Shown: positions 27,892 to 64,000 of the stretch, in pieces | How positions within the stretch are numbered: position 1 is the stretch's first letter | Layout of the letters: the number at the start of each line of letters is the position of its first letter | Assembly: GCA_000004695.1 (NCBI GenBank) | Contig: CM000151.3 | Coordinates: forward strand, 2,688,001-2,752,000 | Source of the DNA: Dictyostelium discoideum | Taxonomy: Eukaryota | Reading direction: 5' to 3' | Length of the DNA: 64,000 nt | Made by a program: the position numbers and the translations under genes | Notes under the pieces: model-generated | Told to the model about the DNA's origin: nothing | Databases searched by the model: none | What the model saw: the letters and a program-made list of their open reading frames with translations, nothing else

Positions 27892-29923
27892 TTATAAATT
27901 ATTTAAATATAAATTTTTAATATCTGTATATATTTGTTGACTTTCAAATACATGATCAGGTAATTTAAAATTATTATCATTTAAAAATTTAGAAATGATT
28001 AATCTTTGGATTTTACCACTTTTAGTTTTTGGTAATTGTTCAACAATTATTATATGTGTTAATTGAGCAAATTTATCAATATCTTGTGTGATGATACTAT
28101 TAATTTCATTTTTTAATTGAATTAAGTCGACATTTGAATCTTGTTGTTTTAAAGTTAATAAACCAATTGGTTTATTATAACAATCTGGATTGTAAATACC
28201 AATTGAACAACATTCAATAACATTTGGATGTTTTAAAATTGATGTTTCAATTGTGTTTAATTGAACTTTATTACCACCAATTTTAATTTGATCATCTGCT
28301 CTTGAAACGATAGCATAATATCCATTTTCATCTTTATAACCTAAATCACCACTACTATAATAACCTGGGAATTTTGTTAAAACTTTTTTAAATTGTTCAT
28401 CATTTTTATAAAATGTTGAAGCGAATCCAGGTGGTAATGGTAATTTGAATACGATTTCACCAATTTGATTCACTGGTAATTCAATACCATCTTCTGATAA
28501 AATTGATGGGTAGACAAATGGTGATGGTGGACCAACTGTGTTGTATGGATTTTTTTTTGATTTTATGTAATCGAATAAATACAAATAACCAGTTTCAGTT
28601 TGACCATATCCAATAGATGGTCTTGATTTTAGTTTGTTTTCAATATATTCTGGAATTGAATCTTCAATAACTTCACCACCATTCCAAATTGATTTTAAAC
28701 TTGAAATATCATATTTTGAATGTATTTGTTTTGCATCTGGATCAACTTTATTTAAATATCTTATTGTTTTTGCTAATGTTAGAAATGCACTAACTTTATG
28801 CTTTTCAACAATTGACCAAATATCATCTTCCATATGTTTTGGTTTTACAATTCCACCTTCAAACATCACAAATGAACATCCATGTAATAATGAAGCATAC
28901 AAAAATGAATGAAACGATACCCATCCTATACTAGTATGAGAAAAGAAAGTAGTATTTTTTTGAACAATTGATGGCCAAAGATAACCAAAACAAACTAAAT
29001 GTGGACCATTACTTCTAACAACTCCTTTTGAATTACCAGTTGTACCACTTGTATAAATAATGTAAAGTGGATGACTTGATTCTACTGTAACATATTCATA
29101 GAATGGTGTTTGATTGTTTTCTTTAATTTTGTTGATTTCCAAGTCCCAATCCAAAGAAGATGGTACAGTAGGTATAGTTTCAATTATTGATAATTGTGCA
29201 TCGGAACTAATTAAATCTCTATTATGTGTAATTACATGATCTGGTTTAAAAGTTGATATTTCAATTGCTTCAATTAAATTTGGTGTAAATGTAATAATTT
29301 CCTCATTTAAAATACCATAATTTGAGGTAATAATAACTTTTGGTCTTACAGCTTCAATTCTATCTATTAAACTTTTTGTTGAATAGCCATCGAATAGTAC
29401 ACAATGAGTTGCACCAATACGAGCACATGATAACATTGCAATTGGTGCTTCAACTGTATTTGCCATAAATATTAAAATATTATCATTTTTTGAAATATTT
29501 AAATTTAAAAGTACTCTTGAAAATTCACATACTTTTTCATATAATTGATAATAAGTTAATTTAACAGTTTTCTTTAAAAATGGACATTCATAAATTAATG
29601 CGTCTTGATCTCTTTTTAATGGATTTTGAACTTGAATATCTAAAACATTATAACATGTATTTAATTCACCACCTTTAAACCAATCTGGATACATTTCATC
29701 ACCACTATAAACTTTATCATACATTTTATCCCTTTTTTTTTAAATTATTTATTGGTATAATTGGAATTTTATTATATTTTTTAAATTATTAATAATTTAT
29801 TTTACAAAATTTTTAAACTTACCAATGTATATATTTTTTGGCAATGTCATCCCAAAATGAAACAGGTTGGGATTCTGCATATTTTAGATCATTTTCATAA
29901 TCAAAAGGATCACTTAATTTCAT
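27892..29923 (-). CDS. ACSS3/PrpE-like short-chain acyl-CoA synthetase (AMP-binding superfamily), paralog A; exons 29923..29823 and 29731..27892
   Basis: Exon 1 encodes MKLSDPFDYENDLKYAESQPVSFWDDIAKKYIHW (the AcsA/PrpE N-terminal 'FW.E.AK...W' motif). Exon 2 gives (W)DKMYDKVYSGDEMYPDWFKGGELNTCYNVLD.., YTSGTTGNSKGVV (A3), GYGQTETG (A5), GDLGYKDENGYY..SRADDQIKIGGNKV (A7/A8), and LPKTKSGKIQR (A10 catalytic Lys). Donor GTAAGT; acceptor AAAAG|G. The exon 1 / exon 2 junction is in phase 2. Confidence 0.85.
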
Positions 29924-30099
29924 TTTTTTCCAAAATTATTTTAATAAAATAAAATTAAAAAAAAAAAAAAAAAAAAAAAAAGTTTATTAATCTTTTTTTT
30001 TTTTTTTTTTATTTTATCGAAGATTTTTTTTTTTTTTTTTGTCAAAAAATCTTAATAAAAATTAATCAGCAAATTTAAAAAAGAAAAAAATTGGTCTGA

Positions 30100-30450
30100 A
30101 ACTCTTTTAATTGTTTTCTTTAAAAATGGACATTCATAAATTAATACATCTTATTCTCTTTTTAATGGATTTTTAATATGAATATCTATTAAATTATAAC
30201 ATGTATTTAATTCACCACCTTTAAACCAATCTGGATAAATTTCATCACCACTATAAACTTTATCATACATTTTATCCCTTTTTTTTTTTTTTTTTATTTA
30301 TTATATGTTAAAATTTGTTTTTTTTTTTTTTTTTTTTTTTTTTTGTGAAGTGCATACCAGTGAGCTTCGTCCCAAAATTAAATTGGATTAATTTGAGAGA
30401 AATTGTAATCATTTTCATAATCAAAAGGATCACTTAATTTAAACATTTTA
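30100..30450 (-). pseudogene. 5' remnant of an ACSS3-like paralog (exon 1 plus the first ~55 codons of exon 2), carrying stop codons
   Basis: The reverse complement encodes MFKLSDPFDYENDYNFSQINPI*FWDEAHWY and MYDKVYSGDEIYPDWFKGGELNTCYNLIDIHIKNPLKRE*DVLIYECPFLKKTIK, after which homology ends abruptly. Confidence 0.7.
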
Positions 30451-61385: not shown

Positions 61386-62962
61386 CAAATTATTAATTAA
61401 TTATCCATATTTTTTGGATTCTATCCTTTTTTTATTTTTTATCACCACTAAAGAGATATTCCTTAAAAAAAAAAAAAAATAGAGAAAATAAGGAAAAATA
61501 GATAAATTTTTTTAAATTTTTTTTTCTTAAAAAACTGCAAATAAAAATAAAAACTAGACTGTTTGGTTATTAAAATGAATATTTATTTATATTTTTAAGA
61601 TTTTTTTTTATTTTTTTTTTTTCAAAAGATATGAAAAAATTTTGATCAGTAAAAAAAAATTTAACAATTTAATTTTAAAAAAATAATTATAAAATCCCAA
61701 TCTAAGCAATGAGAAAGATATAAAATAATTTGTTTTGTTTTTAATTCAAACAATGAGAAAGATATAAAATGATTCTATTTATATTTAATTTTTTTTTTTT
61801 TTTTTTTTTTTTTTTTTTTTTTTTCTTTGGACTCCATTTTATCTAGGCATTTAATTAGACAAAACTTAAATAAAGATAATTACAAAAAATATATGAATGA
61901 AAATTTTTAAAACCCTATAGATATTGGGCAGATATGATAATTTCAAACCTTTTTTTAATTTAAAAAAAAAAAAAAAAAAATATCTTGCACGGGAAAAAAA
62001 AACCTAGTAAAATGTTAAATTATTTAAAAAAAAATAAAAATTCTTATATTTTAATATTTTTTATTTAAATATTTATTGTACACCCATTATTTTTTATCAT
62101 TTTATTATAGTTTTTAATAATCTACAATATATTAAACTATAGTTTAATGTTTTAAAAAATGAGAAATTTCAATAGTATTATTTCCTATTAATTGTTGTAT
62201 ATTATTAAATTATAGTTTTATGTTTTAAAAAATGAGAAATTACAATAGTAAAATTTCTCACAATATGGTAAATCAATAAATTTTTTATAATTTAATGACA
62301 AATTAATATTCAATTCTAATTAAATAATATAAGATTTTTTCAATTTTTAATTTATTAAAATATATTTTTTTTATGGCCAGATTCTTTTTAATTATTTTAT
62401 GATAATTTAATAATAAAGTGTGATTAATTATTAATTAGAAATTGATATTAGTTTATTAAAAATTTTATTATATAAAAATATTATCTAACAAACAATAAGA
62501 ATTTTTTTTTTTTTCATTAGAATTTTTGCACTTTCCCAAAAAATTCTCCATATTATTTTATTTATTTATATTTTTTATTGCGACATTAATTTCTTATTTT
62601 TTTTTATTATGAATTATGGTATATGTAAAAAAAAGTAGTAGGAATAAATTTGGAGATTTTAAATAAACCTTTTTCATGTATCTTTTAAATAATCTTAATT
62701 GAAATTATTAGTGGACATATTTTTTTTATTTAATTTTATTCATTTCATAATTCTAGTTTACTCACTTTTTGTAATTTAGGATATTCATAATATGAATAAT
62801 TTTTAATGACGGGTGCAATAAAATTTATTTTTATGTATAAATTTTTTTTTTCCATGATTTAGTATTATTAATTTTTTTTTTCTTTTTTTTTTTTAATATT
62901 TCATTTGTATTTTATTATATTTAATTTTTCATTTTCATTTTATTAAATAATTAAAAACAAAT

Positions 62963-64000
62963 ATGTATAAACTTAGTGATCCTTTTGATTATTTAAATGA
63001 TAACAGTTATTCAAATTCTAATCCAGAAGCTTTTTGGGATGAGGTTGCTAAAAAGAATGTTTTTTGGTAAATATATATCTTTTTTTTTCTTTGTTAAAAA
63101 AGAGATATTAAAATTAAAACAAAAACTAAGATTTTTAAAAATAAAAGGGAAAAAATGTATGATAAAGTTTATAGTGGCGATGAAATATATCCAGATTGGT
63201 TTAAAGGTGGTGAATTAAATACATGTTATAATTTATTAGACATTCATATTAAAAATCCTGCTAAAAGAGATCAAGATGCATTAATTTATGAATGTCCATA
63301 TTTAAAGAAAACAATTAAATTAACCTATTATCAATTATATGAAAAAGTATGTAAATTTTCAAGAGTTCTTTTAAACTTAAATGTTTCAAAAAATGATAAT
63401 GTTTTAATATTTATGGCAAATACATTAGAACCATTAATTGCAATGTTATCATGTGCTCGTATTGGTGCAACTCAATGTACATTATTCGATGGTTATTCGG
63501 TTAAAAGTTTAATAGATAGAATCGAAACAATTACACCAAAATTAATAATTACAACAAATTATGGTATTTTTAATGACGAAATCATTACATTTACACCAAA
63601 TTTAAAAGAAGCAATTGAATTATCAACTTTTAAACCAAGTAATGTAATTACTCTATTTAGAAATGAAGTTTTGGATGAAACAAAATTAAAAAAAGTTCAA
63701 AATATTCCAACTATTCCAAATACATTAAGTTGGTATGATGAAATTAAAAAATTAAAAGAAAATAATCAATCACCATTTTATGAATATGTACCAGTAGAAT
63801 CAAGTCATCCATTATATATACTTTATACAAGTGGCACAACTGGTAATACCAAAGCTGTTGTAAGAAGTAATGGTCCGCATATGGTTGGTATTAAATACTA
63901 TACATTCCGTAAAGAATCAGATATACCTCAAATTGTATTTTCAAATGCAAATATTGGGTGGGTATCATTTCATGGTTTCTTTTATGGTTTATTATCTGGA
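62963..64000 (+). CDS. ACSS3/PrpE-like acyl-CoA synthetase paralog K (partial, runs off the window end); exon 1 at 62963..63066, exon 2 from 63148
   Basis: Exon 1 (MYKLSDPFDYLNDNSYSNSNPEAFWDEVAKKNVFW, donor GTAAAT) and its intron are nearly identical to those of J. The visible exon 2 is more than 95% identical to J (MYDKVYSGDEIYPDWFKGGELNTCYNLLDIHIKNPAKRDQDALIYECPYL..). Confidence 0.8.

Follow-up and report, generated by a model that had tools for sequence, protein, structure and literature searches.

A stretch of 64,000 nucleotides from chromosome 2 of Dictyostelium discoideum AX4 (contig CM000151.3, positions 2,688,001 to 2,752,000; hereafter, the window), with a base composition of about 22% G+C, carries two arrays of genes for acetyl/propionyl-CoA-synthetase-like (ASL) enzymes, which point away from a central group of unrelated genes. 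In our analysis, the locus very probably represents a lineage-specific tandem birth-and-death family of adenylate-forming enzymes, which has gone through one old orientation switch, local duplications and losses, and exchange of sequence between copies. A first-pass annotation, made from the letters of the window, had read the two arms as separate clades left by an ancient inverted duplication, each of them amplified afterward. The phylogeny does not support such an origin, since neither arm forms a clade (0% bootstrap support for either) and the C/D group of the minus arm falls with the plus-strand copies F to K and with copies dispersed on chromosome 1 (97 to 98%). The independent tandem amplification proposed for each arm is borne out, with the F-K type growing from one or two genes to six and the C/D type from one to two.

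Organization of the two arrays

With copy J as the query, tblastn confined ASL sequence in the window to 27.9 to 64.0 kb. The four minus-strand copies (A, B, C, and D) are of gene length and are accompanied by two short fragments, and the plus strand holds a further seven, E to K, the last of which is cut by the end of the window (Table 1). Together with the gene models, these matches confirmed that A to D all lie on the minus strand and E to K all on the plus strand, with both sets transcribed away from the central genes. The copies share a gene structure made up of an exon 1 of about 30 to 35 codons, one phase-2 intron of 61 to 102 nt, and a long exon 2. The starts of the open reading frames (ORFs) recorded in the first-pass annotation (MYDKVY...) therefore fall inside exon 2.

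The layout is not an assembly artifact, since positions 27.0 to 64.0 kb of the window agree at 99.9% identity with GCA_054883475.1, which was assembled independently from the same lineage; in this near-identical assembly, copy K is the outermost gene of the plus arm. The spacer between J and K contains a direct repeat (60300 to 60521 and 61125 to 61376, 86.5% identical), and about 727 bp of this spacer (60306 to 61032) are missing from GCA_054883475.1, which reflects either a repeat-mediated indel or an assembly difference.

The perfect segregation of the strands between the arms is statistically unremarkable, because tandem duplication keeps orientation and a single orientation switch therefore suffices to produce it. 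The ASL genes themselves are already annotated, and a literature search for the cluster by family name and gene identifiers found no relevant paper.

Phylogeny of the ASL copies

A protein tree of the window copies and 50 dictyostelid relatives, with 200-replicate split bootstraps, resolved seven orthogroups, each supported at 94 to 100%, namely, A, B, X1, X2, C/D, a group dispersed on chromosome 1 (chr1), and F-K. The supports are split-based counts; counts from replicates that are not rooted alike underestimate deep nodes. Orthogroup A (100%) includes orthologs from D. citrinum, D. dimigraforme, and D. firmibasis, and the C/D and F-K clades are supported at 95 to 100% and 100%, respectively. 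D. firmibasis genes occur in orthogroups A, X2, C/D, and chr1, which therefore predate the split between D. firmibasis and D. discoideum. Furthermore, the clade that joins C/D, chr1, and F-K at 97 to 98% excludes A, B, X1, and X2; within it, F-K groups with chr1 in 66 to 70% of the replicates and with C/D in 28 to 32%. The nucleotide comparison gives a similar picture, C and D being 79 to 85% identical to F to K and 76 to 77% identical to A and B, with copy E roughly equidistant from all full-length copies. The closest pairs are C and D (92.7% nucleotide identity), F and G (93.0%), and J and K (98.4%).

These trees show that the minus arm is a row of old, distinct paralogs (A, B, and C/D, from which AX4 has probably lost an X2-type member) and not a recent amplification. 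The plus arm consists of one decaying old gene (E) and the F-K clade, whose closest relatives are the C/D lineage, located opposite it on the other side of the center, and the chr1 copies. Minus-strand and plus-strand copies are interleaved in the tree, where neither the minus-arm copies nor F-K and E form a clade in any replicate (0% each), and they appear to have been subject to gene conversion. An interleaved tree is the very result that the first-pass annotation had named as refuting its reading. Moreover, self-blastn of the window revealed neither mirrored intergenic sequence nor mirrored gene order, the inverted homology being gene sized, with matches made up of gene bodies and at most 140 nt upstream. 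The features expected from an inverted segmental duplication were thus not found, as the arms showed no continuous homology, no reciprocal clades, and no position-matched pairs.

Sequence exchange between clustered copies

In a sliding-window comparison, copies D and G, which lie on opposite arms, form a mosaic, with 95 to 99% identity in alignment columns 375 to 825 and 60 to 78% identity in columns 975 to 1350. Trees of separate segments agree with this pattern: the 3' part of the gene (nt 900 to 2010) sorts by orthogroup, the 5' part (nt 200 to 620) clusters the four D. firmibasis genes, and the middle (nt 621 to 860) brings C, D, F, and G together and leaves their orthologs in D. dimigraforme outside. 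In protein trees of the N-terminal 261 residues, orthogroups A, X2, C/D, and F-K dissolve (0 to 12% support), and the dispersed chr1 group stays intact (95 to 96%); its separateness fits a local exchange, since the dispersed copies lie outside the cluster.

The third codon positions are particularly informative. Over nt 200 to 860, D and G differ at 7.7% of these positions, and each differs from its own D. dimigraforme ortholog at 19.5%; over nt 900 to 2010, the divergence between D and G is 29.2%, and the divergences from the D. dimigraforme orthologs are 27.0% and 24.5%. Paralogs within one genome are therefore closer than orthologs over a segment of the gene, synonymous sites included, as is characteristic of concerted evolution. 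In addition, runs of identical polymorphic sites are significant by permutation for many cross-arm pairs, as in the case of the run of 61 sites shared by C and G (p <= 0.0005). Since mosaic identity, segment trees, third-position divergence, and site runs agree, we interpret the pattern as gene conversion by which the clustered copies have exchanged sequence after speciation, also across the arms, within about the first 650 nt of exon 2. The homogenized stretch codes for the end of ACAS_N and for the AMP-binding domain as far as the P-loop, and the remaining two-thirds of the protein presumably carry the substrate pocket.

Synteny in related species

The comparison of gene order suggested by the first-pass annotation was informative in D. 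dimigraforme, D. citrinum, and D. firmibasis and gave no usable synteny in D. purpureum. The locus of D. dimigraforme and the window are collinear. First come the upstream genes with TRAPPC10 and then six minus-strand ASL genes (A, X1, X2, two B-type genes, and C/D, with X1 and X2 lying between A and C/D), after which follow the genes for the HPP-family protein, the CfaA/B/C family protein (Cfa), the lipase, and the Cys-rich protein, the decayed remnant of an E gene, and two F-K genes on the plus strand. An inversion of the A-D block of D. dimigraforme relative to AX4, considered from the order of the locus tags, was rejected, as the coordinates show the tags to be nonpositional and the locus to be collinear. 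In D. citrinum, a C/D-type gene, Cfa, the lipase (without HPP), and the Cys-rich gene are accompanied by an E remnant and a pair of F-K genes on the plus strand, and a divergent D. discoideum strain has E and six intact plus-strand ASL genes. Copy A stands tail to tail with TRAPPC10 in every species examined.

At the main locus of D. firmibasis, A lies beside TRAPPC10, and about 23 kb away there are X2, B-type, and C/D-type genes followed by the Cys-rich gene, which is directly adjoined by orthologs of the genes flanking the outer end of the D. discoideum plus arm; no plus arm, lipase, HPP, or Cfa was found at this locus. Taken by itself, it had suggested a plus arm younger than the D. firmibasis split, a reading overturned by a second locus on another chromosome (locus 2; CM069767.1:275571-297608), where, in a compact arrangement, a C/D-type gene and the lipase occupy one strand and the Cys-rich gene and a 652-aa ASL gene the other. 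The C-terminal tree places the latter in the F-K clade with 97% support, so that locus 2 has an F-K-type gene, and E, HPP, and Cfa are absent from it. Because the divergence between the two D. firmibasis Cys-rich genes is 3.4% (against 10.6 to 11.4% from that of D. discoideum) and the two C/D-type genes are sisters at 100%, the two-locus state can be attributed to a recent species-specific segmental duplication followed by differential loss, and locus 2 is evidently a recent segmental transposition. The flanks of locus 2 are unrelated, with a CLU-domain gene on one side and FNIP, RanBP1, and MLH1 genes on the other. On CM069770.1 (2.708 to 2.760 Mb), the D. firmibasis segment that runs from the o16086 ortholog past TRAPPC10 to gene A appears inverted with respect to D. 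discoideum, with one breakpoint in the family array between A and X2 and the other in or beyond an unsampled 8-kb gap.

Together, these loci show an outward-facing pair, with a C/D-type gene and the lipase on one side and the Cys-rich gene and an F-K-type gene on the other, which predates the D. firmibasis split. The orientation switch is old, as had been supposed: D. dimigraforme and D. citrinum share the divergent layout, and D. firmibasis has its core. Relative to the flanking ASL genes, the orientation of the central block is unchanged in four of four species, so that no crossover-type inversion has been fixed. F-K-type genes number one in D. firmibasis, two each in D. citrinum and D. dimigraforme, and six in D. 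discoideum; in the C-terminal tree, the pairs of D. citrinum and D. dimigraforme show a tendency to fall with the F/G subclade (70%) and the I/J/K subclade (42%).

The content of the central block is described correctly in the first-pass annotation as far as the HPP-family membrane protein and the lipase are concerned, and the secreted Cys-rich protein noted there at 40893 to 41486 can now be specified as a member of CfaA_B_C. The label "LysM/3D-like" for the gene at 44471 to 45230 found no confirmation, as its product had no Pfam match and no PDB sequence match. This gene, the Cys-rich gene of the comparisons above, is a conserved partner of a C/D-type gene in four of four species, with orthologs of 90 to 96% amino acid identity. 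The lipase adjoins a C/D-type gene in D. citrinum, D. dimigraforme, and D. firmibasis locus 2. HPP is present in D. dimigraforme and was not found at the corresponding position in D. citrinum or at either D. firmibasis locus. We infer that the central genes are passengers and not an organizing center.

Loss and decay of copies

The remnant between A and B (30058 to 30454) has an exon 1 closest to those of X2-clade genes (70.6%). Since this exon fits X2 and relatives carry an X2-type gene in the minus arm (inside the arm in D. dimigraforme and, judged by locus-tag order, next to a B-type gene in D. cf. discoideum), AX4 has probably deleted its own X2-type gene and left this stump.

In the alignment of C with D, copy C shows a 1-bp deletion near position 34700, which shifts its frame, and it is annotated as 622 aa in another assembly through an added intron. 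The interval between C and D contains a 93-nt ASL fragment on the minus strand (36209 to 36302) and a copy (36293 to 36888) of the sequence at 39213 to 39843, 86.9% identical by self-blastn. A decayed fragment of the HPP C terminus is recognizable at 36527 to 36883 (HPP residues 185 to 309, 62% identity); therefore, the C/D tandem duplication unit reached into the neighboring HPP gene.

Copy E has a long Gly/Ser (GSGSGS...) coding repeat insertion within 47190 to 47420, followed by an acidic/Ser-rich stretch, and a C-terminal frameshift at about 48041 to 48050, which separates the A10 core motif from the rest of the protein; in the 709-aa protein annotated in another assembly, A10 is not in frame. 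Its orthologs in D. dimigraforme and D. citrinum, in the corresponding place, are decayed remnants as well; the E lineage is decaying in all three species that have it. Copy H is annotated in another assembly as fragments of 294 and 152 aa. Copies C, E, and H are decaying and are likely dead.

Proposed history and alternative explanations

In the simplest history, a single orientation switch would have seeded the plus arm, either by inverted duplication of one C/D-like gene or by inversion of the distal end of a one-way array. Later tandem duplications would have inherited the local orientation, giving rise to the perfect strand segregation; F-K grew by such duplication, and C/D duplicated once in the D. 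discoideum lineage, carrying a piece of HPP along. Noncrossover recombination between clustered copies, on either strand, would keep the first 650 nt or so of exon 2 near identical within species, and the remaining two-thirds of the gene would stay orthogroup specific. The locus displays the traits of birth-and-death evolution, that is, close neighbors in like orientation, pseudogenes (C, E, and H), two stumps, and copy-number turnover.

Some points weigh against this history. The trees were built by neighbor joining on corrected p-distances and are not likelihood based, and conversion could have made the 3' signal less clear in places as well. The permutation test of the site runs ignores rate variation along the gene. 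The derivation of F-K as an inverted copy of a C/D-like gene is drawn from the 97 to 98% clade and from adjacency. Copy E joins neither F-K nor, among the minus groups tested with it, C/D or X2 and takes a basal place, which is possibly due to long-branch attraction; the plus arm may have been seeded twice. Finally, D. purpureum has a single gene of the clade and a remnant in an unrelated context, which offers no synteny to polarize the events.

The perfect strand segregation, together with the confinement of all recent tandem groups (C-D, F-G-H, and I-J-K) to one arm or the other, is also what would be seen if an ancient inverted duplication of the locus had made two arms, each amplified later, with A-D and E-K as separate clades. 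We nevertheless consider this origin extremely improbable, in view of the 0% support for a clade of either arm, the greater closeness of C/D to F-K than to A and B, the presence of own orthologs of A, B, and C/D in three other species, and the lack of mirrored intergenic homology. A different objection to a single switch is that E and the F-K ancestor could have entered the plus arm separately, as inverted insertions or inversions, so that the arm would have been founded on two or more occasions. E and F-K are never grouped together (0%), the split of all copies but E is supported at 68 to 80%, E is an old lineage, with orthologous remnants in the corresponding place in D. citrinum and D. dimigraforme, and locus 2 of D. 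firmibasis has an F-K-type gene and no E. However, E is decaying on a very long branch, with its Gly/Ser insertion and frameshift, and long-branch attraction possibly accounts for its basal place; a single switch with early tandem duplication is more parsimonious, and D. firmibasis could have lost E. We thus regard repeated seeding as unlikely, although it deserves serious attention.

The near identity of the 5' third might, alternatively, be due to strong purifying selection on a conserved domain, with no exchange between the arms, given that conserved enzyme segments (the end of ACAS_N and the N-terminal portion of the AMP-binding domain) are encoded in this region and that codon positions 1 and 2 differ little there in every comparison. 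Such an explanation is very improbable, as it does not agree with a third-position divergence over nt 200 to 860 that is lower across the arms (7.7%) than between orthologs (19.5%) and reversed in the 3' part, with orthogroups that are supported at 94 to 100% C-terminally and dissolve N-terminally as copies join same-species neighbors, or with the chr1 copies, which are under equal protein constraint and are not homogenized. The arrangement could also be functional, with the two arms driven outward from the central block as their common regulatory hub, and in this regard, the divergent layout is conserved in four species and the homology between D and the plus-arm copies reaches about 110 to 140 nt upstream of the ATG. 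Yet this upstream homology is gene proximal and duplicated with each unit, and the content of the block varies, as D. citrinum lacks HPP and locus 2 of D. firmibasis lacks both HPP and Cfa. Moreover, the innermost ASL genes are 6.8 kb apart, and each of them is parted from the center by the 3' end of another gene, so that they share no bidirectional promoter. We therefore give a regulatory hub hardly any credence, and a single old switch with tandem birth and death and local conversion remains our preferred explanation.

Identity of the enzyme family

The ASL proteins contain the Pfam domains ACAS_N (PF16177), AMP-binding (PF00501), and AMP-binding_C (PF13193), an architecture that places them in the ANL superfamily, in its acetyl/propionyl-CoA synthetase-like branch. 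Copies A, B, D, F, G, I, and J retain intact core motifs A3 (P-loop, T/S-S-G-T-T-G), A5 (Y/F-G-Q-T/S-E), A7 (G-D), A8 (R-x-D-D), and A10 (lysine motif, P-K-T-x-x-G-K). By comparison, C is frameshifted, A10 is out of frame in E, and H is broken. The nearest relatives outside the dictyostelids are bacterial proteins annotated as propionyl-CoA synthetase (32 to 36% identity), and the best solved relative is PDB 5gxd_A (E = 8e-89), followed by acetyl-CoA synthetases.

The three-domain architecture and the core adenylate-forming motifs are common to ASL and to bacterial PrpE (propionate-CoA ligase) and AcsA (acetate-CoA ligase). However, different from these enzymes, the ASL proteins score 275 to 370 bits with the NCBIfam equivalog models, far under the cutoffs of 725 (TIGR02188), 955 (NF007815), and 827 bits (TIGR02316). 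On account of these scores, the family, whose members are predicted enzymes, is a divergent dictyostelid-specific clade, orthologous to neither AcsA nor PrpE. D. purpureum has one gene of the clade and a remnant, and the D. discoideum group has at least six orthogroups. The D. purpureum remnant is a decayed partial copy (exon 1 and C-terminal pieces; GL871239.1, 6595 to 8636) just upstream of the single gene, which suggests an abortive tandem duplication.

Features of the window

The features of the two arms and of the central block are collected in Table 1.

Table 1. ASL copies, remnants, and central genes, with positions in the window
Feature	Positions	Strand	Status	Evidence
ASL copy A (DDB_G0273211)	27892..29923	-	Intact; orthogroup A	Gene model identical to annotated protein
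5' stump of lost ASL gene	30058..30454	-	Exon 1, intron, and first ~75 codons of exon 2	tblastn, self-blastn
ASL copy B	31022..33057	-	Intact; orthogroup B (100% support)	Gene model, split-bootstrap tree
ASL copy C	34019..36024	-	Frameshifted; recent tandem duplicate of D	Alignment
C/D duplication debris	36209..36888	-		self-blastn
ASL copy D (DDB_G0273215)	37007..39011	-	Intact; innermost of minus arm	Model identical to annotated protein
HPP-family membrane protein gene	39455..40390	-		PF04982, E = 2.6e-53
CfaA/B/C (counting factor-associated) family secreted protein gene	40893..41486	-		PF11912 (CfaA_B_C), E = 2.8e-26
Class-3 lipase gene (Lipase_3)	41906..43354	-		PF01764
Secreted Cys-rich protein gene	44471..45230	+	Two exons, 225 aa	Gene model equal to 225-aa annotation in other assembly
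ASL copy E	45819..48210	+	Long branch, degenerate	tblastn, motif check, exon comparison
ASL copy F	48552..50602	+	Intact; F/G subclade of F-K clade	Gene model
ASL copy G	50884..52904	+	Intact	Gene model, tree
ASL copy H	53497..55040	+	Pseudogene	Stops, frameshifts, internal deletion of ~aa 367-529
ASL copy I (DDB_G0273305)	55505..57522	+	Intact; I/J/K subclade	Model identical to annotated protein
ASL copy J (DDB_G0273229)	58225..60240	+	Intact	Identical to annotated protein
ASL copy K (DDB_G0273365)	62963..64000	+	Cut by window end	tblastn

Two further observations concern the part of the window to the left of the arrays. An internally repetitive coding region, unrelated to the arrays, lies at 5104 to 6711 (5542 to 6161) inside a 535-aa minus-strand ORF, and its repeats are direct, offset by roughly 90 to 420 nt, and 70 to 78% identical. 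Upstream of TRAPPC10, the ORFs at 1203 to 1952 and 21007 to 21552 are distantly related (about 25% identity), and a third relative (35% identity) is found beside the X2 gene of D. firmibasis; the three represent a small dispersed family with no assigned function.

Comparison with known systems and significance

Tandemly arrayed gene families commonly evolve by birth and death combined with partial concerted evolution. The ASL locus shares with this general model its close, like-oriented neighbors, duplication units that include flanks, pseudogenes and stumps, copy-number differences between species and strains, and paralogs that are closer than orthologs over part of the gene. Nothing essential differs; what the ASL locus adds is that exchange is limited to the 5' third of exon 2 and occurs also between opposed subarrays. 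Human Y-chromosome palindromes are inverted segmental duplications with arm-to-arm gene conversion, and, as in the ASL locus, inverted copies around a unique spacer exchange sequence. However, different from the palindromes, the ASL arms are not mirror copies, since their homology is gene sized and interrupted, with no pairing by position and no arm-specific clades. The domain-limited, orientation-independent conversion at the ASL locus is a tidy example and not a new kind of system.

More speculatively, the 5' module, "constant" in that local conversion would keep it uniform, and the 3' two-thirds, protected from exchange and falling into specificity classes older than the species, might together make up a modular diversification system, perhaps supplying starter units for Dictyostelium polyketide synthases, with the inverted arms as a standing substrate for inversion of the central block; we put this forward as a rather doubtful possibility.

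The main value of the analysis lies in a correction: a locus may look like a mirror image in its raw sequence without having arisen by a mirror-image duplication, as a single change of orientation together with tandem duplication gives the same picture. Moreover, it gives a dated history of an uncharacterized enzyme family, in which copies C, E, and H are pointed out as likely dead, and provides a clear case of domain-limited gene conversion between paralogs in opposite orientation. For work on these genes, it follows that orthology calls, expression mapping, and knockouts must allow for the near-identical 5' thirds of the ASL copies.

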